Positions 15,106 through 45,320 of a DNA stretch of 64,000 nucleotides are shown here, in pieces (the first letter of the stretch is position 1; the number at the start of each line of letters is the position of its first letter). The translations under genes were made by a program, and so were the position numbers. The notes beneath the pieces were generated by a model that ran no database searches, was not told where the DNA came from, and saw nothing but the letters and a program-made list of their open reading frames with translations. The stretch lies in assembly GCA_947246685.1 (NCBI GenBank), contig CAMXSN010000004.1, positions 11,117-75,116 of the forward strand, written 5' to 3'. The stretch is from an uncultured Clostridia bacterium (GTDB taxonomy: Bacteria > Bacillota > Clostridia > Christensenellales > UBA3700).

Positions 15106-15124
15106 TCAAATATACAACATAATA

Positions 15125-15225
15125 TTCGCCGTGGGTGCTGTAAAAAGCTGAGATTATACCACTTGAATCGGACAAGGTAATGCTTGAACGAAAGAGCGCA
15201 AAATTTCTTTGCACCCCGTATAATC
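15125..15225 (+). promoter_or_regulatory. TPP (THI-box) riboswitch
   Basis: GGGTGC...GCTGAGA...ACC...GAATCGGACAAGGTAATGCTTGAACGAAAG resembles the THI element (CUGAGA and the CAAG-GUAAUG-CUUG P5 analogue). A weak hairpin plus T-run follows. A ThiT gene lies downstream. Confidence 0.6.
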
Positions 15226-15287
15226 AGTACTGGGGGCATTTTTATTTTCATTTGTCGGCGGAAATATATTTTTATAAGGAGTCAAAT

Positions 15288-26669: not shown

Positions 26670-27959
26670 TTAATTTGCAATATAATCCCACACTACCGGG
26701 CTAGTGCCGTTCCACGTTTTATCCCAATCGTTCGAGGGGACGGACAGTTGGCAATAAATCGTAAGTTTAGGACAATTGACAAAAGCCAGCGAGCCTATTT
26801 TAGTGACTCCGACCGGTATTATTACGCGCGTCAATTGGACGCAAGAAGCAAATGCTCCCTGATCTATATCGGTAATTCCAAGCGGAATATTGATATCGTT
26901 CAAACTGCTGCAGCCCGCAAAAGCAAACATGCCGATTTTCGTCAAACCGGTACTGAGCTCTACTCTTTGCAAATTTTTGCAATTTTTGAATACGCCGTCG
27001 CAGAGGATCTGCACTCCCGACGGAATAGCTATCTCTGTCAAATTGACGCAGTTTTCGAACGCATAAAACCCGATATACGTCACTCCCGACGGAATTTGCA
27101 CTTCGGTCAAATCCCTGCACCCCTTAAATGCGCCCGAACCGATGCTTTTCACATAATCGGGAATTACGCTGTTGTTGCAGCCTAAAATCAATTTGTCGGT
27201 TTGTTTTTCGATCAAGCAATTGCCCTGGCTCTTAAATACGGCATTATCGGCTTCGACCTCAATGCTTTGGAGATCGACGCAATTATAAAAAGCATACCAA
27301 TCTACTTCGGTAATTTCTTTGGGGATTGTCAATGCCGTAACCAACTGGTTATTGAGATACAATTTGCGAGCATATTCAAGCGGATTGGCATCGCTCACTC
27401 CAAAATCGATTTTTAACCAACTAGTCATATCAAAAATGTATACGCCCTTCAATCCGTCGCACCCGTCAAAAGCAAACGAACGGATTTCCTTAATACCGGA
27501 AGGAATAGTTATACTGATCATTTCCTCGCAATCTTTGAAGGCTTTGCTGCCGATACAGGTAACAGCTTTACCCTCGTACGTTGCCGGCACAGTAACGTTG
27601 GCTATGCGATTATTCTCTGCCAAACCTTTGAGCGTATACGACTCATTGTCGGGATTAAGTTCGAAAACAAAACCGTTATAATTTATCTGTTTACATACTT
27701 TGCATTTGCCGTCGCCGTCAAAATCGTGTTCGGCTTTGTCATTGATGACTTCGTGTTCGCACGCTGCCGCATGCCAATGGAAGCGGTTATCCGACGACCA
27801 TTCGCTCTCGAAAGAATGCTCATGATTCTGCACGGTCGAATCGGATTTATTACCGTCGCCGCTTTGAGTATTACCCGCAGAATTATCGCAACCTGCCGCC
27901 AACAAAACTATGCTTATAAATGTAATTACCGTTAATAATACGAATATCTTTTTATTCAC
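26670..27959 (-). CDS. Leucine-rich-repeat (BspA-type) surface lipoprotein
   Basis: 429 aa with a GTG start. Signal peptide plus lipobox LLAAGC. Repeated units of the form IPxGVxxIGxxAFxxCxxLxxI. Confidence 0.8.
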   Translation of the reverse strand: MNKKIFVLLTVITFISIVLLAAGCDNSAGNTQSGDGNKSDSTVQNHEHSFESEWSSDNRFHWHAAACEHEVINDKAEHDFDGDGKCKVCKQINYNGFVFELNPDNESYTLKGLAENNRIANVTVPATYEGKAVTCIGSKAFKDCEEMISITIPSGIKEIRSFAFDGCDGLKGVYIFDMTSWLKIDFGVSDANPLEYARKLYLNNQLVTALTIPKEITEVDWYAFYNCVDLQSIEVEADNAVFKSQGNCLIEKQTDKLILGCNNSVIPDYVKSIGSGAFKGCRDLTEVQIPSGVTYIGFYAFENCVNLTEIAIPSGVQILCDGVFKNCKNLQRVELSTGLTKIGMFAFAGCSSLNDINIPLGITDIDQGAFASCVQLTRVIIPVGVTKIGSLAFVNCPKLTIYCQLSVPSNDWDKTWNGTSPVVWDYIAN

Positions 27960-28170: not shown

Positions 28171-29484
28171 TTATCTCTTTGCCGTGAACAGCATAAACCC
28201 GAGCGTAAAGAAAAACTCTTCGCTGAGAAATTCGCTTTCAAGACGCTCGTAATTATCCTCAAACCATTCGGCTGCTTTTACATAATTATCGTCGTCTGGA
28301 TATTTTTTTGACAGAATACGCATATCTTCGCGAATAAAAGAAAAATATACGTCGAATAGCGCTTCTCTTTCGTCAAATGACATTCCTGCGGTGGAAATCA
28401 GCGCGTTGCGCATTTTCACATCGGCAAAACCACACTTCCTGAGCATAGTATAAATTTCTCTTCCGCTTTTGCGATAGCCGGAGAATTCGCTGAAATTGCA
28501 AATTTGGATTGCTTTGGCAAATAATCCGTCCTTATCGGGATATGCAAGATTAAGCCCATCGTCTATGTCTTTTATGATAAACACGCCGTCTGGGACGAGA
28601 AATTTTCTCAATACCCTAAGCAACGCATAAGGCTTTTTCAAATGCAAAATGAGCATCGAAAGGTTGACGACGTCAAACTTTTCTATCCTCTCTTCTCTGC
28701 AAATTTCATCAAGAGTTTTTTCAAAATCATGTGTCTCAACATCAGCCTGATAAAATCTAAAAACGTCAGAGCCATAATTTTGCGTCGCTTGCTCAACGGA
28801 TTTGCCGTCGCAATCGATGCCTACGACTTTGCGAATATTGCCCAAAGGCGCGAATCTGCTATATAGATTATCCCCGCAATTACAGCCCAGATCCAATGCG
28901 TATACATCTTTGCGAGAATTAACGACGTCTTCATATAACTCGCCGTCGAAATCTCTCAAAATTCTCTCCTGCGCTTGCAAACGTCTCAATTCTTTGGTAT
29001 TGTCCGCCGTAAAAAATTTATTTTCGGACCGTTGAGCGCTTACGGAGGGCGCTATATCTTCTCTGCCGAGAATTTTCTTGACTCTGGACTTCAAATTCTC
29101 TATTGAATTATAGAGAGGGCTGTTAGTCGCGTCTATCCAATGCATACGCTTGATATAATATTCCATAGCTCTAGAAAACTGATCGTTGGAAATCTTGAAC
29201 GGCATGATAGTTATACTTTGATTTTGTTCGATATTACGTTTATACGCCATCTCGACTTCGTTGAGAACGTGCGCTGAATTGGACGATTCGCCGTTGAGAA
29301 CAAGTACGAATACGGAAGTATTTTCTATCGCCTCTACTATACTCGTAGCATAATCGCCGATAACGTCGCGCGGCGCATACCAACATCTTATTCTATCCTG
29401 CTCAAAAGCAGCCACTATCGAATCCGCTATAGCCTTCGACCCATGTTCGTAACTGACGAATACGTCGTTTTTCATATCATCCAC
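28171..29484 (-). CDS. TIR-domain protein fused to a class I SAM-dependent methyltransferase
   Basis: 437 aa. N-terminal TIR (DVFVSYEHGSKAIADSI...RCWYAPRDV...VFVLVLNGESSNSAHVLNEVEMAY). C-terminal MTase motif I (VYALDLGCNCGDN) and post-I/II (VVGIDCD..., FDVVNLSMLILHL). Confidence 0.8.
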   Translation of the reverse strand: MDDMKNDVFVSYEHGSKAIADSIVAAFEQDRIRCWYAPRDVIGDYATSIVEAIENTSVFVLVLNGESSNSAHVLNEVEMAYKRNIEQNQSITIMPFKISNDQFSRAMEYYIKRMHWIDATNSPLYNSIENLKSRVKKILGREDIAPSVSAQRSENKFFTADNTKELRRLQAQERILRDFDGELYEDVVNSRKDVYALDLGCNCGDNLYSRFAPLGNIRKVVGIDCDGKSVEQATQNYGSDVFRFYQADVETHDFEKTLDEICREERIEKFDVVNLSMLILHLKKPYALLRVLRKFLVPDGVFIIKDIDDGLNLAYPDKDGLFAKAIQICNFSEFSGYRKSGREIYTMLRKCGFADVKMRNALISTAGMSFDEREALFDVYFSFIREDMRILSKKYPDDDNYVKAAEWFEDNYERLESEFLSEEFFFTLGFMLFTAKR

Positions 29485-29622: not shown

Positions 29623-29651
29623 TTGACACTGACATTGAAATAGGCTATAAT
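29623..29651 (+). promoter_or_regulatory. Sigma-70-type promoter, TTGACA-17 bp-TATAAT, for the TIR-led operon
   Basis: Exact consensus hexamers at 29623-29628 and 29646-29651. The -10 box abuts the ORF-track ATG 29652, so the real start codon must lie downstream. Confidence 0.6.
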
Positions 29652-29681
29652 ATGATTAAAAGTGTCGAAAGGAAAAGGATT

Positions 29682-30881
29682 ATGTGCGAAATTGTCAAAC
29701 CTAAATGTTATGACGATAGGGAAACTTATCGAGAGTTCGATAAATACATGTTTATCAGTTACGCTCATCTCGATCAAGATCAAGTATACGCAACTCTTAA
29801 TTTACTATACGATAAGTGCCTAAATTTTTGGTATGACAAAAAGCTGAACGCCGGCGACGCTTGGGATGAAAAAGTGAGAGACGTAATCGTAAACGAAAAT
29901 TGCAAAGGGATTATACTCTTCATGAGCAAAAACAGCGTAAAAAGCGCGGCCGTGGAAAAAGAGCTTTGCATATACGATCAAATAGTCAAAGAGCGCGGTC
30001 GAGACAATTTCAAACTGATTACTGTGTCGTTAAACTCGATGAACGCAAACGGAGCCGTAAGAGACGCTTATGTTTCTCTCTCCTCTTTGAAAAATTCCGA
30101 ACTCGATATACATCTTCCGCCTGAGCGCGCGATAAATTTCTTGCAAAAAGTTACAAACACCGCGATATACGTAAGCAAGACAGACGCAAATTATGCAGAT
30201 AAAATCATAGATTCTCTCAAAAATTTCGACAGCGAACTGTTCTGCAGCGACGACGTGGCTCTGTCAAAACTGGACAAGCTACCTATAACAGATAAGGAAA
30301 ACGGCAAAACGATACTTTCTTTTGGCAGTTATCCGCAAGAAAAACGAACCGACGTCAAACCGTATTTGCAAAACGGCGAAATAAAAATAAAAAATAAATT
30401 ATATTCGGTAAAAAACGCCATAGCATTCGAACATACGCCTATACAGTGGATCGTCACGGAAAACGATAACCAAGCCGTCACCGCAATATCAAAATTTGCG
30501 CTCGACCGTACCAAACGAGCAGACGCGGACGATTTTATAAACGCCTTCTGTGAAAAGGCATTCGACGAAGAAATAAGAAGCAGCGTAATTTCCATAGAAT
30601 TATGTTCTTTGCAAGACTTGGAAAAATATGCGGAACTGCTCTGCCCGGATGAAGAAACGCCGTATTGCAAATCATACGGCAAAACTGGATTTTCCACCTT
30701 GCTATGGTTAATTGACGGCAACGGAGAAAAAGTATGTTATAGCTCAAACGGCGGAAAGTATACGCAGAAAGCGCTGCCATACGGTTCCGACAGCTTGTCC
30801 TGCGCGCGCCTTAAAATAAAAATTAATATAAACGAATTGATAAGTAAAAATATGACAGGAGAAAAATATGGAACAGATTAA
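29682..30881 (+). CDS. TIR-domain protein with C-terminal DUF6273-like domain
   Basis: Start moved to ATG 29682 (MCEIVKP...). TIR segment YMFISYAHLDQDQVY...NFWYDKKLNAGDAWDEKV...ILFMSKNSVKSAAVEKEL. C-terminal FGSYPQ...PIQWIV motif. Confidence 0.8.
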   Translation: MCEIVKPKCYDDRETYREFDKYMFISYAHLDQDQVYATLNLLYDKCLNFWYDKKLNAGDAWDEKVRDVIVNENCKGIILFMSKNSVKSAAVEKELCIYDQIVKERGRDNFKLITVSLNSMNANGAVRDAYVSLSSLKNSELDIHLPPERAINFLQKVTNTAIYVSKTDANYADKIIDSLKNFDSELFCSDDVALSKLDKLPITDKENGKTILSFGSYPQEKRTDVKPYLQNGEIKIKNKLYSVKNAIAFEHTPIQWIVTENDNQAVTAISKFALDRTKRADADDFINAFCEKAFDEEIRSSVISIELCSLQDLEKYAELLCPDEETPYCKSYGKTGFSTLLWLIDGNGEKVCYSSNGGKYTQKALPYGSDSLSCARLKIKININELISKNMTGEKYGTD

Positions 30882-30948
30882 TAATTACGCCAACGTCACT
30901 GAAGACGTTGTCAACACCAAAAACGCTACCCCCCCCCCCAGAATATAA
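30868..30948 (+). other. Translationally coupled start segment (26 codons) of the next gene, cut off from the main frame by the C11 tract
   Basis: GGAG at 30857-30860, then ATG 30868, which overlaps the TIR gene stop by 14 nt. It reads MEQINNYANVTEDVVNTKNATPPPRI-stop. The frame of 31164..33080 is open from 30903 but has no ATG/GTG/TTG before 31164. Confidence 0.6.
30929..30939 (+). repeat. Homopolymeric C11 tract
   Basis: Counted directly: C at 30929-30939. A length of 12 or 9 C would fuse ATG 30868 to the 31164..33080 frame. Confidence 0.95.
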
Positions 30949-31163
30949 TTGAGAGTGATGACGCCCTTGATTTAGACGATATTTTAGAAAAATCATTTTC
31001 TTCATCGGAAGAAAATAATTTAGTTTTCAACAGATACAAAGACAAAAAAGAAATCGCTCAAAACATAGCGAACGTTTTTTTCAAATATAAATACCGCAAC
31101 GGCGGTTTTTTCAACAATGATTTAGAAAAGTCCCAAATAGGACTGATTACACAGTGTCTCGGT

Positions 31164-33080
31164 ATGCAGATCGCTTCAAGTATTTCCGCTTTGAACTTAG
31201 ATCTGTCTTCAAACGACTATTCAAAAAAAATAAATAAAACGCTTAACGATATTTTCGAAAGTCTCAACGTGCCGAAAAATTATCGCGAACTAATCTTTGA
31301 CGAAAAAGTTGAAGCATTGTCATTTAATATGTCACCCTTTATAGAAATCGACGATAAAAATAATGTTGCCGACCTCAGTCCCGAAGAGAATGCTCAACTG
31401 AACGATCCAACTGAAAGATTGAAATTCAAATCGTGCGTAGAATCGGCATCCAATGTGCTTAAAGCGCTTGCAGAAACACGCGATATGATTGGAAGACAAA
31501 TCGACATAGGCAAGCCGTTGGCGTTGACCTTCTACGGAGAATCCAAATCGTCCGAAGAAATGCTGGATATTTTGAACACGGTCATCAAATATACGGTTGA
31601 ATGGATTAGCAGCGCATGTATAAAAGCAAAAACAGAAATTATCTATAAAATAGACGGCGAACAAGTATATAATGACGAAAGAGATATCGTCAAATATATA
31701 GGTTGGAACTTTTTTAAGATCAACAACCAAAACGAAAATTATGAACCGTCGCTTTATATGACTTTCTCGGTATGCTCCGCATATATGTCGCTCGCCAACT
31801 CAATCGGCAATGCGCGTAATCTTTATAGCAAATATGAAAAAGAATTATCTAATCAGTCGACAGACGGCGATATAGAAGATCTTATCAGAAAAAAATTCCT
31901 GACACAGCAACATACTGCTCAAGATTTGCGCAATATGGAATTGTATCTTTCTATCAAAAATGTTTTCAAACAATTCCAAGAACAATGTATCTTCTCCGGT
32001 CGCTATGAAGAAATGATGTGCAAAGGTTTGATCAACGGTCAACCACCGTTGGACTTGTCGTCCGAGTTCATTGGACTCAATTATACCAAGGTGCTATTCT
32101 CCGACATAGAAAACAGCACCACAAACGACGCCGTAATCAATACCGTATATCACGTGCTAATACTTATATATTCTGGTCTTGATTTAGACTATGCACAAAA
32201 GAAAAAGGTAGATGAATTCTACGACGAAATGCAGTACGCTCTGCAAAACGTGCTGAGATGTTATAAATTGCTATCCAAAAAAGACAAGAGCTACATAATC
32301 GAACAATACGTGCTCTCGTTCAAAGAAAAAATGCCTGCCGACATTGCGTCTGTGGCAAAAAGATTGCGCAGACAGCGTATTCAGGTAGCAAGCGTATTGC
32401 CTTTGTTGATAAAAGCCTATAACGAAGTCAGCCGATATCTTGTGCGTTATCCTCAAAAACAGACAATAGAATATTTGTCGCTTATCATGCAAAACAGGAC
32501 CGATTCGGTGAGAAAAAATAAAATCGTCAAAGAATGGTCTTGGGATCGCGACGGCTACAATCTCAACAGCGAGAATTATTACGTAAAAGCAATAGTCGAC
32601 TTCTATGACTATTACGAAAATTATGAAAAACGCTTTATCGATTCCGACGCCGATCTTCAACAAAAACTCAGCGAATACGACAGCAAAAACAACCAGATAA
32701 TTGACAACTTAAAAGCCGCTCAAACCAAAGAACTCAAAGATATTAAGCAAAAGTGGGACGAAGAAAAATCCCAACTTATCGCCGCTACACACAATCCTTT
32801 GATAGAACAACTAGAAATTATGGTGCGCAAAATTATTGAAGACAACTTTGAAGAATTGCTCAAAACTACTTTTAACAAAATTATCTGCGAATCGGACGAA
32901 GACGAAGAAAGTTTGCGCAGAATTTTCAATAAGTTGGTATTCCACACTATATTTGAAAATAATAAGCAAACCGCAACCAACTCCCTTAACGGAGACAACG
33001 GCAAATTAATATATACTAAAATTAAAAACTACTGCAAACAAAATTTCAGTGCAATTGAAAAAATATTAGGTGAAAATTAA
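31164..33080 (+). CDS. Large uncharacterised protein (638 aa from ATG 31164; about 737 aa if joined to ATG 30868 across the C tract)
   Basis: Long ORF, same strand and tightly packed in the TIR operon. No catalytic motif recognised. Predicted helical, with a coiled-coil-like stretch (DADLQQKLSEYDSKNNQIIDNLKAAQTKELKDIKQKWDEEK). Confidence 0.75.
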   Translation: MQIASSISALNLDLSSNDYSKKINKTLNDIFESLNVPKNYRELIFDEKVEALSFNMSPFIEIDDKNNVADLSPEENAQLNDPTERLKFKSCVESASNVLKALAETRDMIGRQIDIGKPLALTFYGESKSSEEMLDILNTVIKYTVEWISSACIKAKTEIIYKIDGEQVYNDERDIVKYIGWNFFKINNQNENYEPSLYMTFSVCSAYMSLANSIGNARNLYSKYEKELSNQSTDGDIEDLIRKKFLTQQHTAQDLRNMELYLSIKNVFKQFQEQCIFSGRYEEMMCKGLINGQPPLDLSSEFIGLNYTKVLFSDIENSTTNDAVINTVYHVLILIYSGLDLDYAQKKKVDEFYDEMQYALQNVLRCYKLLSKKDKSYIIEQYVLSFKEKMPADIASVAKRLRRQRIQVASVLPLLIKAYNEVSRYLVRYPQKQTIEYLSLIMQNRTDSVRKNKIVKEWSWDRDGYNLNSENYYVKAIVDFYDYYENYEKRFIDSDADLQQKLSEYDSKNNQIIDNLKAAQTKELKDIKQKWDEEKSQLIAATHNPLIEQLEIMVRKIIEDNFEELLKTTFNKIICESDEDEESLRRIFNKLVFHTIFENNKQTATNSLNGDNGKLIYTKIKNYCKQNFSAIEKILGEN

Positions 33081-33094
33081 AAGAGGTACGATAT

Positions 33095-33991
33095 ATGAAA
33101 ACAATTTCTTTCTTTTCTTATAAAGGCGGTTCAGGAAGAACGTCTTTGGCTTACAACAACATCCCACTTATTGCTCAAAATTTACACGCGTCCCCTACGC
33201 ACCCGCTTGTAGTAATGGATATGGACATCGACAGCGCAGGCTTGTCTTTTCTATATAGGAATAAGATAAAAAACTGCCGTCTTTTCGTGCAAAACATCTA
33301 TTCCAACATACCGGGAATACTAGATGACAGAACCACTATACCGGAAATAGGCGACCATCCGTTTTTCAAAGCTTTGATACCGATAGGAGACCTATACGGT
33401 ATGGATGAAAAAAGCATTCTCTTTATGCCGGCTAATACGGAAAACTCCACAAATATCGAGCTGGATACATACAACTTAAAAAGCAATCCGCTCAAATTGA
33501 TCATAGAAAATATTTATGAAGAATACGAATGTTGCGGCGTTATACTCGACTGCCCAACCGGTAAGCAGATGACGGCGACTGCAAGTTTGAAGGTCTCCGA
33601 CATAATCGTGCTGGTAATGCGCATAACCGCTCAATTTAGAAACGGAACGTATTCTTATCTCAAATGGTTCGACAGCAGATACTCCGACAAAAGATTGATA
33701 ATTGCTCCCAACGCTGTGCCAAACGACGAGATTACGTTGGAAAATATGCCATACGACTACGAAGCGGTCAAATATAATATTCAAGAGACTATAGCGGATA
33801 TTCTGAACGAACACGGCCACACAAATACGGCTGATTTCACGTTGCTTGAAAACGGAAGATTCGGCGTCCCCGAAGTGGTAAGATTCAAATTCAAAGAAGA
33901 CGTCCTACTCTTACTGCAATCAAGACGTCCCGACGAAGAGAAAGCTCTTCAGATTTATCGCGTATTATCGGACGCGATATGCAAAGGTTGA
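33095..33991 (+). CDS. ParA/MinD-superfamily P-loop ATPase with variant Walker A (KGGSGRT)
   Basis: 298 aa. Deviant Walker A SYKGGSGRTS, Walker A' VVMDMDIDSAG, Walker B GVILDCPTG. RBS AGAGG lies 14 nt after the previous stop. Confidence 0.75.
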   Translation: MKTISFFSYKGGSGRTSLAYNNIPLIAQNLHASPTHPLVVMDMDIDSAGLSFLYRNKIKNCRLFVQNIYSNIPGILDDRTTIPEIGDHPFFKALIPIGDLYGMDEKSILFMPANTENSTNIELDTYNLKSNPLKLIIENIYEEYECCGVILDCPTGKQMTATASLKVSDIIVLVMRITAQFRNGTYSYLKWFDSRYSDKRLIIAPNAVPNDEITLENMPYDYEAVKYNIQETIADILNEHGHTNTADFTLLENGRFGVPEVVRFKFKEDVLLLLQSRRPDEEKALQIYRVLSDAICKG

Positions 33992-33998
33992 ATGCGTT

Positions 33999-36317
33999 AT
34001 GGACAAGAATTCAATTACGGACAAAAAGAATAACGCCGTGCAAACTATTCTCGCAAGAATTCCCGACGAGAATTTGCGCGCGATCATATTCGGCAATAAA
34101 GGACGCGACTTTTCCGCTAAAACGCTGAACGATTCGGAAGAACTCCTAGAATATACGTCAAGACTGCTGACTGTTGCTTTTCATTTCGTATATTTCAGAT
34201 ACCGCAAATGGGTGCTGGTAGACAACTGCATTGACAACGGTCCCGAAAATAACGACCTTGTCCGCATATTCAAAGTGCTCAAAAATTTGTATCTATCCTA
34301 TGATTTGTCATACGACATAATCGAAAGCATATTAATGGACGTGCAGATAGACGTCGCTCTAAACGGAGTTATATCGCAAGAACTGCGTATATTGCAGGAG
34401 ATCGGACACAGCCCCGATTACGCCAAGATGACTTATCTTGCCAAACAGGCGAGAACGCGCGCCAGATTCAACGACGATACTCCTCTCAGCGACCGAATCG
34501 ACGAATTCGTAAGATTTACAAACAACTTTATGTTTACCCGTTTTCTCAAGGCGTCGTATGAAACCATAGACGGAGTAACTTATTACGACAACGGAGAAAT
34601 ATCTCAACGCACACTACAACGCTGTCTGTGGGAAAGTTCCGGCGCATACAGCCATTTCAACGGTGCTGAAGATCCTTTTAACGGCAAGATAGAAACATAC
34701 GACTGTATTATCAAAATTGCTAAAAATCATTATTTCCTCAATAGTCTTGACTTCATAACTCCCAACAGAGACGTCGTATCTGGCAACGATTTGTTTAATT
34801 CGGACGATGACACGGACTTTATAGGCATAAAACTCAACTATTCCTCCTTCCAATCGAGCAATGATTTCGTAACGGTGATAATAAGCGACGACGAAAGCCT
34901 TATCGACGATAAGTACGGAGAAAAGTTTTTCTTTATAAAACAATCGTGCAAACAATATTGCGAGGATAATTTTCTCTTTGACGGAACAAATGACGAAAAA
35001 CCTTTAATAGAGGATTTCTATTCTATTAATTACAAATATATACGCAATCTTGCCTTGGCGATCGTAGACGTGCTTGACGACGATCATAAAAATAAGATAT
35101 GCCATACTTTCTCCAAGGAAGATCGCTACAAGTTGCTTTTCCCCAACGACGGTTCGTCCAAACTAGCCTCGTTGCATTGGGACGTCATCATCGCCATTCT
35201 CATGGTGGAAGAAGGCGCCGGCAAATTATTGCGAATACTTTTTGAAAACAAACAGACGTTCAACGCTCTCGCGAAAAATCTTGAGTTGCGGTTTGGCCGC
35301 GAACGTTTCACCGCCGACCAGCTTATCAAGACCTCAAAACGCGAGATTGACAACGATATCAAAAACCTTGCCAAACGAAGTCCGTTCGGCAACGTAAACC
35401 CAAAAGACAGCGAAACTATACGCATAGACGAAGAGTCCCGCGCAATCGTAGTCAACGTGACTAAAGCAGTCAACGGCAACAATATAATGACGGGAAAAGT
35501 CGGCTTTCCGCTCAGCATACGATCGCATATTCAATTGCTCGAAAGCATAAAAGACGATACCCACGACAGCAACAAAAGCAAATTTACGCTGCTTAAAGCT
35601 ATCGTCAATCAAGCTCTGACCACTTTGATTAAATTCTACAGAGCCTTTCTCGCTTACGCTCAGATCAAAAAAGAGTTTGAAAACGAATCGTATTACAGAG
35701 TTCTTACGGACAGCGAAATCAACGCATATCAAACGAGAGCGCAAAACGCTTTCGAGAACAAACGCGAAGAAAGTCATGCGATTTTCGACGGCAGAGAGGA
35801 CGACTTCCCGTTTATTATGGAACAACTGAAATCTTTGTGCAAAGATTGCGCGCCGGGCGGCGATAAATATGCGCTTTTCAAATATACTCTTGGCAGACAG
35901 CAACTGCTCGACCACGAATTTGTGGAAAATGCTTTGTTAATCTGCAACGAGAATTATTTATCTCCCGACGACGATTTTATAGAAGACGCATTCAACGCCG
36001 TTATCGACGTGCTGAATTATCTGCAGACCGGCGAGAGAAACAAAAGAAAGTCTCGCGCTCGAAAAGAACTGTCCATGAATGCGATATTCCCATACGTTGC
36101 CACTTATCAATACGCAAAGCAAACAGGCGACGGATACCATATCAACAACTTCTCTATCATTTCCGATAAGGGATATGAAAACTCTGTCAAAGTCATGAGC
36201 GAATTTCGATATGATCTAAATGAAAAATATTACTGTCTGCCAAACAAGCAACGCTCCGCTCAATCTCTTAACCTATGGATCGAGCCTATTATGATCAATT
36301 ACAAAAACAAGGATTAA
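33999..36317 (+). CDS. Large uncharacterised protein (772 aa)
   Basis: Long ORF that starts 7 nt after the ATPase stop. No recognisable domain or motif. Confidence 0.75.
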   Translation: MDKNSITDKKNNAVQTILARIPDENLRAIIFGNKGRDFSAKTLNDSEELLEYTSRLLTVAFHFVYFRYRKWVLVDNCIDNGPENNDLVRIFKVLKNLYLSYDLSYDIIESILMDVQIDVALNGVISQELRILQEIGHSPDYAKMTYLAKQARTRARFNDDTPLSDRIDEFVRFTNNFMFTRFLKASYETIDGVTYYDNGEISQRTLQRCLWESSGAYSHFNGAEDPFNGKIETYDCIIKIAKNHYFLNSLDFITPNRDVVSGNDLFNSDDDTDFIGIKLNYSSFQSSNDFVTVIISDDESLIDDKYGEKFFFIKQSCKQYCEDNFLFDGTNDEKPLIEDFYSINYKYIRNLALAIVDVLDDDHKNKICHTFSKEDRYKLLFPNDGSSKLASLHWDVIIAILMVEEGAGKLLRILFENKQTFNALAKNLELRFGRERFTADQLIKTSKREIDNDIKNLAKRSPFGNVNPKDSETIRIDEESRAIVVNVTKAVNGNNIMTGKVGFPLSIRSHIQLLESIKDDTHDSNKSKFTLLKAIVNQALTTLIKFYRAFLAYAQIKKEFENESYYRVLTDSEINAYQTRAQNAFENKREESHAIFDGREDDFPFIMEQLKSLCKDCAPGGDKYALFKYTLGRQQLLDHEFVENALLICNENYLSPDDDFIEDAFNAVIDVLNYLQTGERNKRKSRARKELSMNAIFPYVATYQYAKQTGDGYHINNFSIISDKGYENSVKVMSEFRYDLNEKYYCLPNKQRSAQSLNLWIEPIMINYKNKD

Positions 36318-36321
36318 ACTT

Positions 36322-36927
36322 ATGACGGATATGCAATTCAGACAATTCTGCGACAACGACAGCATAGAAGAACTTGCACAGCTTATAATGGACACCGACC
36401 CGTATATCTATGCGGACTTATTCGGCAGCAAAAACGTAGCTCGCAAAGTATTGCCGTATCTATTTAGACTGGATAAAGGTATTTTTCGCAAAAATTCTTA
36501 TTATATCTGCCTGCGCAACGGCGAAATCGTCGCAATGGCTACGCTTTTTAAGGCAGATGACACGTGGGATCAATCGAGCGTAAAAACCGCTTTTATCGAG
36601 GCAGGAGAGCCTCTTCCCGAGTCATTTGATGCAGTAAGCGAATATTTCAAAAGCGCGCACAACTATACGCCGGGTACAAAAGCCTGCAACGTGTGCGTTT
36701 CCAAAAATCTGCGCGGACAGGGACTCGGCGATTTTATGGTCAAGCAATTGATTCGGTTGGCAGGCAATTCGGATATATGTCTCAGCGTAATGCAAGACAA
36801 TATCGCGGCAGTAAAATTATATCAATCCAACGGATTCAAAATAATCTACGAATTCGACGACTACGGAGGTTACGGCAATGCGCCCATAAAATGTTACTTT
36901 ATGATAAGATTTTATTCATTAACATGA
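36322..36927 (+). CDS. GNAT-family N-acetyltransferase
   Basis: 201 aa. Acetyl-CoA motif A VCVSKNLRGQGLGDFMVKQLIRLA and C-terminal AVKLYQSNGFK. Starts 4 nt after the previous stop. Confidence 0.8.
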   Translation: MTDMQFRQFCDNDSIEELAQLIMDTDPYIYADLFGSKNVARKVLPYLFRLDKGIFRKNSYYICLRNGEIVAMATLFKADDTWDQSSVKTAFIEAGEPLPESFDAVSEYFKSAHNYTPGTKACNVCVSKNLRGQGLGDFMVKQLIRLAGNSDICLSVMQDNIAAVKLYQSNGFKIIYEFDDYGGYGNAPIKCYFMIRFYSLT

Positions 36928-36943
36928 CAATTGTTATGCAAAC

Positions 36944-36978
36944 AAAAAGCGCATCACGGACTGTGATGCGCTTTTATT
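36944..36978. terminator. Bidirectional rho-independent terminator
   Basis: AGCGCATCAC-GGACT-GTGATGCGCT (36948-36972) flanked by an A-run and a T-run, between the convergent GNAT and YegP-domain genes. Confidence 0.8.
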
Positions 36979-38398: not shown

Positions 38399-38489
38399 GG
38401 AGAAATACCCAAGAGGCCGAAGGGGCTCCCCTGCTAAGGGAGTAGTACGTGAAAGCGTAGCGAGGGTTCAAATCCCTCTTTCTCCGCCA
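38399..38489 (+). tRNA. tRNA-Ser (GCU)
   Basis: GGAGAAATACCCAAGAGGCCGAAGGGGCTCCCCTGCTAAGGGAGTAGTACGTGAAAGCGTAGCGAGGGTTCAAATCCCTCTTTCTCCGCCA. Class II tRNA with a long variable arm and encoded CCA. Confidence 0.9.
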
Positions 38490-39071: not shown

Positions 39072-39245
39072 TTATTTTGTTTTGGTTGTTACAGTTCCAT
39101 TGCGAATTATGATATGTATATATTTATCACATTTTTGACATTTTATATAGCCGTCCATACCGTTCTGCGCTTGCACAAGTACGGTTTTACAATGCGGACA
39201 ACACGCATAATATAACGCAATTTTCGATTTAGTAGTTTCTTCCAT
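39072..39245 (-). CDS. Small zinc-ribbon protein (57 aa)
   Basis: [57 protein letters not shown]. Paralogous in layout to the neighbouring small ORF. Its start overlaps the thiE-HAD stop by 17 nt. Confidence 0.5.
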
Positions 39246-40542
39246 ACAATGACGGGGCTTTACTAAAACTCATAATAAAACTATCTGCTAACGACAATAT
39301 TTCGGGTATATCTTTCCGTGAATAATAATCATAAACGGCGCAAACTTTTGCTCCCGCTTGCTTAATAGATTTCATTGCGCTTAACACATCTTCAAAAAAT
39401 AAGCACTTTTCGGGAATGCTTTGCATTTCCCGTACTGTTTCAATAAAAAAGTCGGGGTATTCTTTTCCGCGTTTTGAATTTTCGGCAGTACAGTAACAGT
39501 CAAATAATTCATATATTCCGTTATTTTTCAGCGCAGGAATAAAAAGAGACGGCGGCAAATTTGTGGCTACGCCTAATTTAATACCGCGTTTTTTTAGTTT
39601 TCTTAAATAGGCTTTTGTGTGTGGTTTTAACTTTATATTGTGTTCGTATTCGTATTGTGCCATATTGCGCCATTCGTTTATCAATTCGGTTGTTGTTTCG
39701 GGCAAATCAAATAATGTTTTGGTATATAATGCCGCTTCTTTGAAATTCAATGCACTGACTTTTACAATATAATCTGGCGGTACGGTATAGCCGCGTTTTG
39801 ACAAAAATGCAATGTCAATCTTTTCCCATAAATCATTTGAATTGAAAAGCGTTCCGTCTAAATCAAATACAGCACATTCTATATTGTCTAAATTTAATTT
39901 ATTATCTGCCGAGCGGCGATACGAAAACGCTTTTTTCATACGTTGCGTTTCGTTTTGAATATTATTGCTTGAAATTATAGCAGATACAACCGCCAGCCCG
40001 TCAATATTTATTCCGTCAAAATATGATAAGCGTTCCGTATTGATACCGCCAATCACAACAATGGGCAATGTACTTGCAGAGCAAATTCTTATTAGTTCGT
40101 CGCGTGTTACGATTTCGGCGTTTGTTTTTGTATTCGTTGCAAACATAGCCCCTACGCCGAGATAGTCCGCTCCGTATGCTTCGGCTAAAACTGCCTCTTT
40201 AATCGTTCGTGCAGATACGCCCAATATTTTATTTTTGCCTATCATTTTTCGCGCTGTTTCTATCGGCATATCGTCAACACCTATGTGTACACCGTCGGCA
40301 TCAACAGCAAGCGCAATATCAATTCTATCGTTGATGATTAAAGGCACACCGTATTTATCTGTTATTTGCTTAATGCTACACGCAAGTTTGTAAAATGCTT
40401 TCGTAGATAAATCTTTTTCGCGCAACTGAATAAGAGTACACCCGCCGAGAATTGCTTGCTCGACGGCAATTTCCAAAGTGGGGGTACTCATCAAATTCCT
40501 ATCGGTAACGAGATAGATACTGTAATCAATTTTCGGTTTCAT
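39229..40542 (-). CDS. thiE: Thiamine-phosphate synthase fused to a HAD-family phosphatase
   Basis: 437 aa. N-terminal ThiE (YLVTDRNL...IQLREKD...[21 protein letters not shown]). C-terminal HAD motif [13 protein letters not shown]. Confidence 0.85.
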
Positions 40543-41341
40543 TTAATAGCCCGCCTTTTTTATAAAGTTCATAAAAATGATTTGTCGGTCCGCAACCTTT
40601 TCCGATACTTAAAGCGTGTTGTATTGCCGTAGTTACATAATCTTTTGCATTTTTTACAGCAGTAGAAATATCATAACCGAGTGCCAAATTTGAGGCGATT
40701 GCGGACGACAAAGTGCAACCCGTTCCGTGCGTGTTTTTAGTGTTAATTCGTTGCGTTTCAAAACGATAAAATTCTTTTCCGTCAAACAGAATATCAACTG
40801 CGTTTCCAATATAATGACCGCCCTTTATAAGTACGCTTTTACAGCCTAAACCGCAAATTTTAACAGCGGCTTTTTTCATATCTTGTTCGGTATTGATTTT
40901 GATTTTCGTTATAATTTCCGCTTCGGGAATATTAGGTGTGAGAACGGTTGCAATCGGAATTATCGTTTCAATTAGTGTGCCGATTGCATTTGGTTGCATT
41001 AGCGCGCACCCGTTTTTTGCGTACATAACGGGGTCAATAACAATATGTGCGGGCTTGTATTCTTTCAATTTATTTGCAACTATTTTCATACAGTCCGTGT
41101 CTGATAACATACCGACTTTCACGGCATTTACTGTTATGTCCTCAAAAACCGCGTCAATTTGTTTAGCAATTATTTCGGTCTTAATATTTTGAATATCTAT
41201 AACGCGACTTGTATTTTCGGCTACTACGGAAACAATAACACTCATACCGAATACACCGTGCGCCGAACACGTTTTTATATCGGCTTGTATTCCCGCGCCG
41301 CCGCTACAATCAGACCCCGCAATACTCAATACGGTTTTCAT
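40526..41341 (-). CDS. thiD: Hydroxymethylpyrimidine/phosphomethylpyrimidine kinase
   Basis: 271 aa. [21 protein letters not shown] and [11 protein letters not shown] motifs. Confidence 0.9.
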
Positions 41342-41973
41342 ATAATTTGCTCCTTTATGTTATTTGAATAAACTAAAATCAAAGTTCCCGATTTTACCGA
41401 AATAAAACTTTCTTTTCCTATAAACTCATTGCTTACACCGATAGGAAAATGGTTGTATAATACGGCGTTTTTTAATTCAAATTTTAGACCGCTGATTGTT
41501 ACGCCGTCAGATTTTTCCGTTAAAGAAAAGACGGAAATATAGCCGCTTGCTTTATTATCAAAAGAAATTCGCTTGTTTTTAATTGCCGTTATAATGCAAT
41601 TATCGTCATATAAAAAACCTTGTTTGTCTTTCTCCGATAGAAAAGCCAAAGTTTGAATATTTGCTATTGTATGGTCAATTCTGCCGCCCGTGCCGCAATA
41701 AATTTTGAACGTATCAAAACCTAACTGTATGCCTTTACGTACTGCCGCCAAAGTGTCGGTATCGTCCTTATCAACGTTCAATTTTATAACTGTCGCATTT
41801 AACGGCGTTTCGGTTATAGAATCGAAATCGCCTATAATTAAATCAGACTTAATTCCAGCCTCTTGTAAATACTTTAATCCACCGTCGGCGGCTATGATAT
41901 AATCGCCGTTTTGCGGAGTAAAATCAAGCCCGTAATTTTTGCCGGCACCGACTATATAACACGTTTTATTCAT
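41338..41973 (-). CDS. thiN: Thiamine diphosphokinase
   Basis: 211 aa. AADGG, IIGDFDS, KDDTD, GGRIDH and VSNEF motifs of TPK. Confidence 0.8.
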   Translation of the reverse strand: MNKTCYIVGAGKNYGLDFTPQNGDYIIAADGGLKYLQEAGIKSDLIIGDFDSITETPLNATVIKLNVDKDDTDTLAAVRKGIQLGFDTFKIYCGTGGRIDHTIANIQTLAFLSEKDKQGFLYDDNCIITAIKNKRISFDNKASGYISVFSLTEKSDGVTISGLKFELKNAVLYNHFPIGVSNEFIGKESFISVKSGTLILVYSNNIKEQII

Positions 41974-42632
41974 ACGCTTTCCTTTTCAAAAACCATTTCC
42001 CAAAAATAAAGTTCGTGTAAACTTGCTTGACGGAAAATTTCTTTTAATTTTTCTTGCCGTTTGACGGGTAGGCAATCACATTTTTTATCGGCGTAATGCG
42101 CCCAAAATTCGCAACTCTTGATATATTCGTCATTTGCGTAATCGTCGATTAAAGCCCAATACGGCGATTTTTTAATATTAGAATGATTTTTTACAACTTC
42201 GGTAAACACATAACAGTAGCCAATCATACACGGCAATACAGCCATTAAAATTTCGGGTATATCGTTATTTTCCGCAATAGAAAGCATATAGTCCGTATAA
42301 TTTCTATTTACTTTTGTTGCTTGCATAAGTTCTATATCGTCATCGGTTATGCCGAATTGATTTAGATAATTAAGGCGAACGGCAGATTCACCGTCCGTTA
42401 CAAAACTTAAAATATTATAAAATACTTGCAAATCTTTTAAGGTGGTAGAGCGGTACATAGCCATAGCATAAACACGCGCGTATTGTTTTAGATAAATACT
42501 GTCTTGTATTATATAAAACTTAAATTTTTCAAACGGCAATGTTCCTTTTGCCAATTCTTGCACAAAATCTGATTTGTAGCATTTTTCCCATACGTCCATT
42601 GTTTCATTGATTGTTTGTTTGATAAAAGCCAT
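41970..42632 (-). CDS. tenA: Thiaminase II / aminopyrimidine aminohydrolase
   Basis: Start moved to ATG 42632 behind GGGAGG. TenA-like FIIQDSIYLKQYARVYA and C-terminal YFWEM segments. First gene of the thi operon. Confidence 0.8.
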   Translation of the reverse strand: MAFIKQTINETMDVWEKCYKSDFVQELAKGTLPFEKFKFYIIQDSIYLKQYARVYAMAMYRSTTLKDLQVFYNILSFVTDGESAVRLNYLNQFGITDDDIELMQATKVNRNYTDYMLSIAENNDIPEILMAVLPCMIGYCYVFTEVVKNHSNIKKSPYWALIDDYANDEYIKSCEFWAHYADKKCDCLPVKRQEKLKEIFRQASLHELYFWEMVFEKESV

Positions 42633-42719
42633 TTTCGCCTCCCGTTTTTTAATATAAAAAGAGCCTCCCATTTTGGAAAGCCCTTTCACAAAGTCATTTT
42701 GCACACGACAAAGGAAATT

Positions 42720-42848: not shown

Positions 42849-42864
42849 ATAATGATTAAACACT

Positions 42865-42950
42865 ATTTTGCTCCCTACGTCGGTATTAACCAACAGGTTC
42901 AAAGGGTCAGGTTTTGCCTTCTCAACTCCATAGAGTTCCCCTGCATTTGC
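42865..42950 (-). promoter_or_regulatory. TPP riboswitch, promoter-proximal copy
   Basis: Minus strand AGGGGAACTCTATGGAGTTGAGAAGG...ACCCTTTGAACCTGTTGGTTAATACCGACGTAGGGAGC. Close match to the THI-box consensus. Confidence 0.8.
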
Positions 42951-43365
42951 AAATATAATATCACTTTTGAAAAATAAAGTCAAATAATTCTATGACATTA
43001 AATCACATTCGATATTATTTACATTTCGACAATATCATTAGTTTTTTAACAGCATAACCAAATAGTACGCCGTATTTTCCGTGATATAATTATTGTGTAT
43101 GAGTATATTCTTTTGCATAAGAATTACATAGTTTTGTTATTCGCTTGTGCTTACCGTCTGGGGACGGAATACGCCGCCTTGACAAATTGTAAAGGGCGAC
43201 GATTTATCTCCCGTTAGGCATAAAACCGTCGTCGCCTACGGCGCAAACCCTTGACAATTTGCCTGCGGCGGCATTTTTGGCTGATTAAGACGGTAAGCAC
43301 CAAAGCGAACAACAAAATTTTAAGCCGCAGTCCGCACACACGCAGACAGCGCAAAGGAGTAGACA

Positions 43366-43752
43366 ATGAAAAACGCAGTTATCTACACACGGAGTGCAAG
43401 CCCCAACGAGCAAGCAACCAACGCACAACTTGAAATTTGCCGCGAGTATGCAAACACGCACGGCTATAATATCGTTGCGGAATTTTCAGACAACGGCTAT
43501 TCGGGAATGACTTTTGACCGCCCCGCATTTATTGCTATGAACAACTGCCGCGACAAGTGGGAAACATTGATTGTTTATTGCATAGACAAGTTATCGCGCA
43601 ATAGGCGTGATTTTTGCAAGTATAGAAAAACATTGCGCAACGAGGGCAAAGAAATTGTATCAACTGTCGAGCCGCTTTCGGACGATATTTTTGCAACGAT
43701 AGAGAGTTTGCAAGAGTTTTATACTTATCAAAAAGGAGTACAACACAAATGA
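43366..43752 (+). CDS. Stand-alone resolvase-domain protein (serine recombinase N-terminal domain only, possibly degenerate)
   Basis: 128 aa. MKNAVIYTRSASPNEQ... and IVYCIDKLSRNRRD. The canonical YxRxSSxxQ is altered. The stop overlaps the next ATG (ATGA). Confidence 0.6.
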   Translation: MKNAVIYTRSASPNEQATNAQLEICREYANTHGYNIVAEFSDNGYSGMTFDRPAFIAMNNCRDKWETLIVYCIDKLSRNRRDFCKYRKTLRNEGKEIVSTVEPLSDDIFATIESLQEFYTYQKGVQHK

Positions 43753-45320
43753 AGAACGCAGTTATTTACGCCCGTTTCAGTTCGTCGGGACAAAATGAAC
43801 AGTCAATAGAGAGCCAAATTCGCACTTGTACAGAGTTCGCGGAAAGTCAAGGCTACGCGATTGTCAAAACGTATTCGGACAAGGCAAGGACGGGAACAAA
43901 CGACAGCCGCCCGTCGTTTCAGCGTATGATAAAAGACGCCGCCAGCGGGCAATTCCAATACATAATCGTTTATATGTTTGACCGCTTTGCCCGCAATCGC
44001 CGCGACAGCATTATGTACAAAGAAATGTTAAAGCAAGATTACGGCATACGGGTATTATCGGCAACCCAGCCCATCAGCGACGACGAGGGCGGCGAGTTCT
44101 ACGAAATGTTTTTGGAATGGAACGACGAGAAATACAGCAAGCGATTGTCAAAGCGTGTGCGCAACGGACTTGACACCAGCGTGGAAAACGGCACGTTTTG
44201 CGGCGGTTTTCTGATTTACGGCTACAAGATACGAAAAGAGCCGATAGCGGGCAAACGCGAAAGGTTTATAAAGTACGTTGAAATCGACGAGGAGCAAGCG
44301 GAAATCGTGCGCTATGTTTTTACCGAATACGACAAGGGCGTGCCGAAAAAGGAAATTGCCGACGCGCTCAACGCACAAGGCAAGCGATTGAACGGCAAGC
44401 CGTTCACGGGCAAATCGTTTGACAAGTACATAGTAAACCCGAAATATACGGGCGAGTTCTATTTTGGCGAAAGGCTATGCACGCACACATACCCTGCTAT
44501 TATCGACAAAGCACTTTTCGAGCGCGTGCAAAAACGACTTGCGGCAAACCGCTATTTTGCGGGCGGTATGGCAACGGCGCGTGTGCCTTATCTTTTGACG
44601 GGCAAAGCCTTTTGCGGCAAATGCGAAACGGCTATGGTCGCAGACGGCGGCACAAGCAAGACGGGCAAAACACATCAATACTATGCTTGTAAGCAAAAGA
44701 AAAAAGGCGTATGCGACAAGCACCGCGAGGAAAAAGACAGGTTGGAATTTTACGTTACGCAAATGGTACACGACTTTTTGAGCGACAAGGAAAACGCAAG
44801 AAAAGCCGCCCGTGATACAATCGCGTATTACGACAAGCGAACGGGCGCGGACAATATAAAGAGCCTTGACAGCCGCATAGCGAAAGCCCGCAAGGACATT
44901 GAAGAAATGACAACGGCGTTTATCGAGGCAAAAAGCGCGTTGTTACGGGAAACTATCGAAAAGAGAATGACCGATTACGAAATACTGATAAAAGATTTAG
45001 AGAGCCAAAAAACGCAGTTAGAATACGAGCGCGGTTTGCAAGTCAGCGAAAACGACATACTGGACTATATCGCCGACCTATTGAAAGGCAACCCCGCAGA
45101 CAAGGAATATCAAAAGCAGATAATCGACAACCTTGTTTACAAAGTGTTTGTTGCCGACGATTATATAAACCCGCTTTTAGTTTTGGGGAACGGCAAGGAA
45201 ATTGAAAACGTGCGATTGTCAGAGGTCAAAGACGTTTTGGAAAAACTTTTCGGCGCAAGTGTTCAATCGCAACTACCACTCGCCCGCCAGTTGAAACCTA
45301 AATCGAACATCTCGGTTTAG
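43749..45320 (+). CDS. Large serine recombinase
   Basis: 523 aa. MKNAVIYARFSSSGQNEQSIESQ, VYMFDRFARNRRD, recombinase domain, a Cys-rich zinc-ribbon (CGKCETAM...YYACKQKKKGVCDK) and a coiled coil. Confidence 0.9.
   Translation: MKNAVIYARFSSSGQNEQSIESQIRTCTEFAESQGYAIVKTYSDKARTGTNDSRPSFQRMIKDAASGQFQYIIVYMFDRFARNRRDSIMYKEMLKQDYGIRVLSATQPISDDEGGEFYEMFLEWNDEKYSKRLSKRVRNGLDTSVENGTFCGGFLIYGYKIRKEPIAGKRERFIKYVEIDEEQAEIVRYVFTEYDKGVPKKEIADALNAQGKRLNGKPFTGKSFDKYIVNPKYTGEFYFGERLCTHTYPAIIDKALFERVQKRLAANRYFAGGMATARVPYLLTGKAFCGKCETAMVADGGTSKTGKTHQYYACKQKKKGVCDKHREEKDRLEFYVTQMVHDFLSDKENARKAARDTIAYYDKRTGADNIKSLDSRIAKARKDIEEMTTAFIEAKSALLRETIEKRMTDYEILIKDLESQKTQLEYERGLQVSENDILDYIADLLKGNPADKEYQKQIIDNLVYKVFVADDYINPLLVLGNGKEIENVRLSEVKDVLEKLFGASVQSQLPLARQLKPKSNISV

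Follow-up and report, generated by a model that had tools for sequence, protein, structure and literature searches.

The window analyzed here, a 64 000-nucleotide (nt) stretch of contig CAMXSN010000004.1 from an uncultured Clostridia bacterium, contains an operon of five tightly packed open reading frames (ORFs) on the plus strand, denoted g1 to g5, that together form one unit of ~7.3 kb. This operon is a real, conserved and unannotated member of an undescribed gene-cluster family. It encodes a TIR-domain protein (g1), a large protein with a reading frame broken by a run of cytosines (g2), a ParA/MinD-class ATPase (g3), a second large protein (g4) and a GNAT acetyltransferase (g5), and a further TIR protein is encoded divergently. 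The features of the locus, with positions in the window and protein lengths in amino acids (aa), are listed below; SAM stands for S-adenosylmethionine.

28171–29484, minus strand: fusion of a TIR_2 domain with a class I SAM-dependent methyltransferase, 437 aa, divergent from the operon (Pfam: TIR_2, E 1.7e-14; Methyltransf_31/11/12/23/25)
29623–29651, plus strand: promoter, sigma-70-type, TTGACA-17-TATAAT, 12/12 consensus matches, the best site in the 28–39 kb region
29682–30881, plus strand: g1, TIR domain and C-terminal DUF6273-like (C-type-lectin-fold) domain, 399 aa (Pfam: TIR_2, E 9.2e-10)
30868–33080, plus strand: g2, ~737 aa, predicted (α/α)6-toroid core and C-terminal coiled coil, out of frame after codon 24 in the window
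30929–30939, plus strand: poly-C tract, C11, in codons 21–24 of g2, putative OFF state
33095–33991, plus strand: g3, ParA/MinD-class (SIMIBI) ATPase, 298 aa (Pfam: AAA_31, E 1.1e-6)
33122–33142, plus strand: variant Walker A motif of g3, KGGSGRT
33999–36317, plus strand: g4, 772 aa, predicted helical domains, central β-domain and C-terminal β-barrel (model pLDDT 79)
36322–36927, plus strand: g5, GNAT acetyltransferase (RimI-like), 201 aa (Acetyltransf_1, E 6.3e-11)
36945–36975: terminator, intrinsic hairpin with a 14-bp stem, 6 G-C pairs and a 3-nt loop
36997–38013, minus strand: convergent neighbor, two DUF1508 (YegP/HVO_2922-like) repeats behind a long, acidic N-terminus of low complexity

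The operon and its products

The initial annotation, made from the sequence alone, described this region as a TIR-led operon with one consensus promoter, five same-strand genes and a strong terminator, and most of this description holds. The ORF calls recover all five genes on the plus strand with the junctions originally given (29652/29682–30881, 30868–33080, 33095–33991, 33999–36317 and 36322–36927). The first junction is a 14-nt overlap between the g2 ATG at 30868 and the g1 stop at 30881, and the gaps at the other junctions are 14 nt between g2 and g3 (33080/33095), 7 nt between g3 and g4 (33991/33999) and 4 nt between g4 and g5 (36317/36322). Promoter, gene packing and terminator all agree with a single transcription unit. 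The terminator hairpin, with an A-run before it and a T-run after it, is common to the operon and the convergent DUF1508 gene. The latter adjoins the system in every assembly of the window lineage but not in other lineages. The tRNA-Ser gene reported downstream is present at 38399–38489.

The start of g1 is almost certainly the ATG at 29682, which yields the 399-aa protein, and not the ATG at 29652, because the latter lies immediately against the −10 box; in eight of the nine loci that include g1, the gene is called with the 399-aa start. The TIR_2 match bears out the identification of g1 as a TIR protein. The glutamate at the catalytic position of the TIR domain is encoded at 29961–29963 (E94 from ATG 29682, or E104 in the numbering of the 409-aa ORF) and is invariant in 54 of the 54 non-duplicate relatives, which argues for catalysis over scaffolding. 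The description of the g1 tail as DUF6273-like stands only in part: 3 of the 31 aligned relatives match DUF6273 (PF19789; best E 1.5e-4), and no other family recurs, but the window copy itself shows no Pfam match to PF19789 at E ≤ 0.1. Judging by these profile matches, the kinship of the tail to DUF6273 would be only remote, at the family level. DUF6273 is a C-type-lectin-fold ligand-binding domain (PMC10743442) and the variable ligand-binding domain of the targets of phage diversity-generating retroelements (PMC10743442, PMC11792537).

The divergent gene encodes a TIR-methyltransferase, as annotated, and retains a glutamate at the catalytic position (‘VLNEVEMAY'). Outside the window lineage, its linkage to the system is seen in one case, an Anaeroplasmataceae metagenome-assembled genome (MAG; locus L017), where it lies downstream of the system on the same strand; the other lineages lack it. 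Just past it in the window is a gene for a BspA-type leucine-rich-repeat protein (26670–27959, minus strand; LRR_5, 3.8e-55) with a weak match to a lipoprotein signal.

The two large proteins have no family match in Pfam, NCBIfam, PHROG or PADLOC; nevertheless, their initial designation as orphans fails, given that g2 has 74 homologue clusters and g4 has 20. The length of 737 aa originally given for g2 is obtained with one extra C in the C11 tract, and the 772 aa of g4 were confirmed. The AlphaFold model of g2 (pLDDT 75, pTM 0.73) consists of an (α/α)6 toroid and a long C-terminal coiled coil. Foldseek relates the model to the toroids of cellobiose 2-epimerase, AGE and GH76, with probabilities of up to 1.0, E 4e-3 and TMt of 0.4–0.57. 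The g2 residues conserved at ≥90% are mostly aromatic or structural (G, P, W, F, Y). Unlike g2, the g4 model has no Foldseek match at E ≤ 1e-3 in the PDB and BFVD, with only weak local OB-fold-like similarity; these OB-like matches are too weak for nucleic-acid binding to be assigned to g4. Neither model has an NTPase fold, and neither sequence matches a P-loop family. In the loci examined, g4 always follows g3. A scan of a genome collection with g4 recovered one locus only, in an Anaeroplasmataceae MAG.

The assignment of g3 as a ParA/MinD-fold ATPase with the KGGSGRT motif is confirmed by the AAA_31 match and by NF047398 (‘KGGVGR-motif variant AAA ATPase'), the best NCBIfam model (E 1.4e-10, model positions 2–183 of 190). 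With 41.8 bits against a cutoff of 90, g3 would be a distant relative of NF047398 and not a member by the NCBI threshold. The form KGG[SAT]GR[ST] is found in 115 of the 115 sequences with a recognizable Walker A-type motif (150 listed), with no KGGxGK variant. K10, G11, G12, R15, D42, D44 and D152 are conserved at ≥90%, so that the signature lysine and the Mg/water-binding aspartates, namely the Walker A' Asp-x-Asp (D42/D44) and the Walker B Asp, are kept and the P-loop lysine is replaced by arginine. The 252 representative homologue clusters of g3 come, where named, from Clostridia, Bacilli and other Bacillota MAGs and are labeled ‘hypothetical protein' or ‘BcsQ'.

The last gene is a GNAT, as annotated; its best NCBIfam match is rimI (39.7 bits, below the cutoff), and the motif A sequence ‘RGQGLG' is present in the translation. 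It has no small partner ORF, being preceded by the 772-aa g4 and followed by a convergent gene.

A three-gene core with interchangeable enzymes

The family was delineated from the genomic contexts of homologues and 80 further loci added by a metagenome scan, with ORFs called anew and searched with purpose-built hidden Markov models. The conserved core is the trio g2-g3-g4, the order of which is kept in essentially every locus with enough flanking sequence. The trio recurs in ~80 metagenomic loci, and the synteny is kept down to 24% identity, in agreement with the original proposal of one multi-gene unit. Members of the family are frequent in gut, rumen-type and termite metagenomes; the hosts, where named, are Clostridia, Bacilli and Anaeroplasmataceae MAGs, and all the proteins are ‘hypothetical' in public records. 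By the genes that flank the core, the loci fall into five classes, where g1C denotes the C-terminal region of g1.

Class A: upstream, TIR-g1C; downstream, GNAT (window, L001, L003, L017, L024, L031, L097)
Class B: upstream, TIR-g1C; downstream, tandem AdoMetDC-like domains
Class C: upstream, PAD_porph-type deiminase; downstream, AdoMetDC-like; either with an upstream TIR protein or with none by the core (L049, L050, L063, L064)
Class D: upstream, AA_kinase and radical-SAM/SPASM; downstream, TIR-g1C
Class E (distant soil forms): upstream, PRMT-like arginine methyltransferase; downstream, CxxCxxCC protein (g2-like protein confirmed, hhalign E 2.9e-5)

The enzymes are thus swapped around a constant trio. 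The GNAT is fused to g4 in five loci (L034, L037, L040, L041, L048), is elsewhere followed by, or fused to, a TIR domain, and is replaced by AdoMetDC-like genes in other classes. The TIR gene itself lies upstream of the core, downstream of it or in fusion with the GNAT, and has no counterpart beside the core in the four class C loci named above. The designation of the system as TIR-led therefore has to be dropped: the invariant part is g2-g3-g4. The family matches of the other enzymes include those of the tandem AdoMetDC-like domains (PF02675, 6e-27), PRMT_C/PrmA (9.6e-20) and AA_kinase (8.7e-19); the deiminase-like protein matches PAD_porph with 296 bits but scores below the agmatine-deiminase equivalog cutoffs. 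In class D, the AA-kinase-family gene (275–290 aa) is found three positions upstream of g3 in L067, L071, L074, L076, L080 and L089, directly before the radical-SAM gene where one is called. The radical-SAM protein is most similar to PapB/anSME/W-cofactor maturases and weakly matches ‘viperins associated with kinases'. Its identification as a viperin was rejected: it scores 49–55 bits with pVip compared with 76–79 bits with SPASM maturases and has a Cys-rich SPASM-like tail.

The components evolve at markedly different rates. Compared with the window proteins, the TIR domain, g3 and the GNAT retain 0.6–0.7 bits per residue, whereas g1C, g2 and g4 retain 0.2–0.28, that is, diverge ~3 times faster. 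In addition, a pair of ~700-aa proteins, one with an RyR domain and the other without a Pfam match, abuts the system in 12–16 loci across the classes, either upstream or downstream (L097:2172–6514, L079:1823–6404, L037, L065 and L017:3433–5766). The window lacks this pair, for which PADLOC gives no match; the pair could be either an optional add-on to the system or a distinct system encoded beside it.

The composition of the classes invites two explanations other than conflict. The first is a protein-modification or cellular-organization system, in which g3, together with g2 and g4, would position or scaffold a complex matured or regulated by protein-modifying enzymes, the TIR serving as an interaction or regulatory domain. 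Most of the accessory enzymes are indeed nearest to families that act on proteins or peptides (PRMT-like, PAD-like, RimI-like GNAT, radical-SAM/SPASM), two of them target arginine, and the P-loop of g3 has an invariant arginine; furthermore, several loci have housekeeping neighbors, and no phage or plasmid copies were found. We nevertheless consider this explanation unlikely. The invariance of the TIR catalytic glutamate argues for catalysis, not scaffolding; the interchange of unrelated enzymes at fixed positions, the patchy spread and the fast evolution of the non-enzymatic components better fit conflict systems; phase variation in several lineages (see below) is not expected of a housekeeping positioning system; and neither a substrate motif nor a small precursor gene was found.

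The second is a small-molecule pathway, biosynthetic or signaling, for a metabolite derived from arginine, polyamines, SAM or nicotinamide adenine dinucleotide (NAD), with the g2 toroid as an enzyme, for instance a cyclase or epimerase. The recurrence of AdoMetDC-like, agmatine-deiminase-like, AA_kinase, radical-SAM and SAM methyltransferase genes is in line with such a role, as are the resemblance of g2 to sugar epimerase and GH76 toroids and the presence of ADP-ribosylglycohydrolase and Macro genes near some loci. However, the Foldseek E-values of g2 are weak (4e-3 at best), its residues conserved at ≥90% include no obvious acid/base or metal-binding set, no enzyme is common to all the classes and, hence, no chemistry is conserved, and the transporters or regulators typical of biosynthetic clusters are not conserved. 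A pathway of this kind seems improbable.

A length-variable homopolymer tract in g2

The C11 tract is the sole G/C run of at least 8 nt in the 64-kb window. With C11, the frame from ATG 30868 ends after 26 codons, and with C12, it reads through to give the 737-aa protein, which is found verbatim in other assemblies (P0021, 100% identical, 737 aa). The tract is in frame in 9 of the 14 independent assemblies of the window lineage (C12 in six, T plus C12 in one, and C13 with an A-to-C change and the same total length in two) and out of frame in the other five (C11 in the window and L107, C14 in L007, a C14-equivalent in L015 and C6AC3 in L009). The tract is therefore not a mere interruption, as initially recorded: its length varies across the 14 assemblies and toggles the frame. 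We read it as a slipped-strand phase-variation ON/OFF switch that is presumably OFF in the window. The locus has what characterizes contingency loci, namely a long tract in the 5' coding region or promoter, length variation between populations and toggling of the frame, and the length-variable tract is the best-documented functional feature of the locus.

A 5-bp-stem hairpin followed by a T-run lies at 31093–31106 (plus strand), ~150 nt past the premature stop of the C11 frame. From this weak terminator-like match, the hairpin might increase transcriptional polarity when the switch is OFF.

Homopolymer tracts occur in the system in other lineages as well. In L031, the TIR gene is interrupted by an internal G10 run (845–854), immediately ahead of the catalytic ‘AIEKEIEL' motif; with G9 or G12, the gene would encode an intact TIR-DUF6273-like protein of 393/394 aa. 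In the Anaeroplasmataceae MAG, a 12/12 TTGACA-18-TATAAT promoter (L017:3433–3462), the 18-nt spacer of which is largely a G9 run, precedes eight genes, those for the RyR-domain protein, the TIR protein, g2, g3, g4, the GNAT, the TIR-methyltransferase and a ~690-aa protein; this G9 looks like a promoter-spacer phase switch. A G10 run in L028 is located 83 nt upstream of g2; as the scan places it outside any consensus promoter, it was rejected as a promoter-spacer tract and counts as an upstream tract only. In ~1 Mb of non-duplicate loci, there are just four runs of at least 9 nt, all of them in, or just upstream of, the system operon.

These observations have to be weighed against the possibility that the g2 frameshift reflects gene decay or an assembly error and that the differences in tract length are homopolymer sequencing noise. 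The tract data come from short-read metagenome assemblies only, some at 3–6x coverage, and low coverage and homopolymer noise add to the tract variation. Substitutions cluster around the tract (L010, L013, L015), several contigs break there, and the placement of G/C tracts in the system compared with the flanks is not significant by position alone (p=0.26). Yet apart from the tract, g2 is uninterrupted and matches the in-frame copies exactly, C11 is found in two independent assemblies and C14 in others, and a C11 run is expected ~0.004 times per 64 kb as estimated from the GC content, and no other long G/C run is present in the window. Unrelated lineages, moreover, place G9–G10 tracts at other control points of the system. 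Decay or error is improbable as the explanation.

Relationship to known systems and a possible role in conflict

As initially stated, no canonical TIR partner (ThsA, CD-NTase, STAND NTPase or Argonaute) was detected in the Pfam, PADLOC and NCBIfam scans. The system shares with Thoeris a TIR domain with the catalytic glutamate alongside a variable recognition region, either C-terminal or adjacent, but adds three conserved genes and, in some relatives, has no TIR. The PADLOC model of ThsB1 matches g1 only weakly (15 bits, E 0.0029), none of the eight window proteins matches ThsA (SIR2, STALD, Macro), and ThsA is a neighbor in one of the ~80 relatives. For CBASS and Pycsar, the Pfam, NCBIfam and PADLOC searches yielded no CD-NTase or cyclase, and a ‘SAVED_TIR' match spans TIR residues 32–125 only. 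With regard to Avs and TIR-NLR, there is no STAND NTPase, the sole NTPase of the operon being the SIMIBI ParA/MinD-like g3; with regard to SPARTA/TIR-Argonaute, the operon encodes no Argonaute/PIWI domain, and the Aga_TIR matches are confined to the TIR region (34–128). No small RHH/DUF1778 antitoxin partner of the kind found in GNAT toxin-antitoxin modules (TacT/AtaT type) lies beside g5.

The g3 protein shares with NF047398, ParA, MinD and BcsQ the signature lysine of the deviant Walker A motif, the Asp-x-Asp and the Walker B Asp, and the P-loop Lys-to-Arg replacement also belongs to this comparison. It falls far below the partition, MinD and BcsQ cutoffs, however (ParA_partition, 20.8 bits vs 180; MinD, 19 vs 201.75), and ParABS and MinCDE are not matched, with arginine for the P-loop lysine and no ParB, MinC or MinE families among the neighbors; parS and cellulose-synthase partners are lacking as well.

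The nearest described domain vocabulary is that of the actinobacterial VMAP-ternary/FxSxx-COOH peptide-processing conflict systems (Kaur, Burroughs, Iyer & Aravind 2020, PMC7159879), which combine TIR, radical-SAM/SPASM and a predicted-inactive MinD/ParA-like domain. The TIR, the MinD/ParA-like protein with a degenerate P-loop and, in class D, the radical-SAM/SPASM enzyme are shared with the present family, as is the predicted mode of regulated, NTP-dependent conflict. In the VMAP-ternary systems, however, the ParA-like unit is an accessory domain, whereas here it is a stand-alone gene between the large g2 and g4, which are not part of the published description of those systems, and the hosts are multicellular actinobacteria and cyanobacteria, as opposed to Bacillota from gut-type metagenomes. 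The window proteins include no vWA, MoxR, VMAP, zincin peptidase or AP-ATPase/STAND with tetratricopeptide repeats. No FxSxx precursor was found, small unannotated precursor ORFs not having been searched exhaustively.

Phase-variable contingency loci consist of homopolymer-controlled genes, for example, those of phase-variable restriction-modification systems. The similarity to the present system lies in a long G/C homopolymer early in the coding region or in a promoter spacer, with length toggling the frame; the difference is that the controlled unit is a five-gene TIR/ParA-like operon and not a methyltransferase or surface antigen.

Other searches similarly returned only general similarities. 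PADLOC does not assign the genes to any named system, in accordance with the initial annotation, and gives only weak generic TIR-domain matches for the window proteins. Membership in PDC-M28B was rejected, the PADLOC match (E 4e-4) covering the P-loop only. PHROGs gave generic ParA and acetyltransferase matches, and PDB sequence searches with g1, g3 and the profiles of g2, g4 and g1C yielded no credible match. No published description of this gene set was found, nor one in a modularity-network preprint; the PADLOC-DB version is from 2023, so later naming is possible.

The idea of a new multi-component TIR-associated system survives these comparisons, but recentred on the g2-g3-g4 trio, with swappable TIR and GNAT components and the C-tract phase switch. 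Our preferred interpretation, which from the sequences has about an even chance of being correct, is that the locus is a new phase-variable conflict or defense system, likeliest directed against phages or mobile elements, in which the TIR domain serves as an NADase effector. Exchange of accessory genes about a constant core is a known trait of defense systems. In this conflict scenario, the trio, conserved as a module throughout the family, would consist of the g2 toroid/coiled-coil protein, the g3 ATPase and the helical/β-barrel g4. The g3 protein might act as an ATP-dependent dimerization switch or latch with slow or no hydrolysis, and the recognition surfaces would be provided by the rapidly diverging components, namely, g2, g4 and the C-type-lectin-like g1 tail. 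A trigger would cause the module to release or activate its enzymatic partners. In the window, the outputs would be the TIR of g1, a predicted NAD+ glycohydrolase or generator of an ADP-ribose (ADPR) signal, and the RimI-like GNAT, with the linked TIR-methyltransferase as an optional extra. The tract lengths observed, with C12 in frame and C11, C14 and similar forms out of frame, would render g2 phase-variable, such that a population mixes armed and unarmed cells. Such a mixture suggests that the system is costly or under fluctuating selection. Predicted-inactive MinD/ParA-like domains have already been recorded in TIR-containing conflict systems (PMC7159879).

The gene neighborhoods point in the same direction. 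Among the 129 flanking proteins, PADLOC matches with E<1e-8 include ThsA, LeoA/LeoBC, MADS, DpdF, LmuA, AriA and Dsr2, and the flanks of other loci encode RhuM, DUF1016, AAA_21, TraG, Macro and ADP-ribosylglycohydrolase. In L034, the gene for a canonical Thoeris ThsA (13886–15310, minus strand; SIR2_2 and STALD/SLOG; ThsA1, 3.5e-187 in the flank set) is located right after the g4-GNAT fusion. Three small unannotated genes lie behind this ThsA. The presence of defense and mobile-element genes in the flanks is suggestive, the enrichment being without a control set.

Several further points weigh against a role in defense. The absence of TIR from some relatives means that it cannot be a universal effector, and the PRMT-like, PAD-like, RimI-like GNAT, radical-SAM/SPASM and AdoMetDC-like enzymes are not classical defense effectors. 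The roles proposed for g2 and g4 rest on structural models without significant structural neighbors (E ≥ 4e-3). No copies were detected in phages, plasmids or viral contigs by a viral-contig scan and tblastn of g3 against phage and plasmid collections, and PADLOC, as noted, offers no named system. L001, L003 and the window sit among housekeeping genes. In the window lineage, there is no presence/absence polymorphism, the operon being on every contig with the identical DUF1508 neighbor. The GC content of the operon (0.403, vs 0.417 for the window and 0.394 for the surrounding 25–43 kb) leads to the rejection of a compositional island and contradicts the initial impression that the block is more AT-rich than its flanks. 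The noise in short-read tract lengths and the non-significant tract placement add to this side of the balance.

Elsewhere in the window, downstream of the operon, a thiamine salvage/biosynthesis operon (~39229–42704; TenA, TPK, ThiD-like, ThiE-HAD) is preceded by a thiamine pyrophosphate riboswitch (42855–42952, minus strand; 62.9 bits). Two large serine recombinases are encoded at 43749–45320 (plus strand) and 45615–47108 (minus strand), and a small resolvase and a rolling-circle Rep-like gene are annotated in the recombinase region on a contig of the same lineage (L104); the segment 43749–47108 and beyond, ~7 kb away from the operon, probably represents an integrated mobile element. A low-GC block at 53000–58000 (0.30–0.35 vs 0.42 for the window) contains two large plus-strand ORFs, 53099–55174 (691 aa) and 55156–57168 (670 aa).

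A more far-reaching and tentative version of the conflict scenario, possible but rather doubtful, is that the trio is a new immune sensor-switch platform, in which a stand-alone KGGxGR ATPase, as a stable latch in the ATP-bound form, and two rapidly diverging recognition proteins operate with interchangeable enzymes under homopolymer switching in several lineages. The enzymes would then degrade or alter essential cofactors of the adenine-nucleotide type or targets containing arginine: NAD+ would be attacked by the TIR, SAM by the AdoMetDC-like and radical-SAM enzymes, and arginine by the PAD- and PRMT-like enzymes. If true, this platform would bring a new NTPase class and new effector chemistries into bacterial immunity.

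The NTPases known in bacterial immunity are STAND, ABC/SMC, AAA+ and helicases. If the family described here functions in defense, it would add to these a SIMIBI ATPase with a Lys-to-Arg P-loop and would reveal TIR domains that cooperate with proteins lacking detectable relatives. The enzyme swapping points to effector chemistries that would be new to phage defense, namely, those of SAM decarboxylase-, arginine deiminase- and arginine methyltransferase-like enzymes. The recurrent homopolymer switches offer a natural ON/OFF genetic handle and suggest a measurable fitness cost. Because the family is common in the metagenomes named above and all its proteins are ‘hypothetical', elucidation of its function would annotate hundreds of protein clusters.

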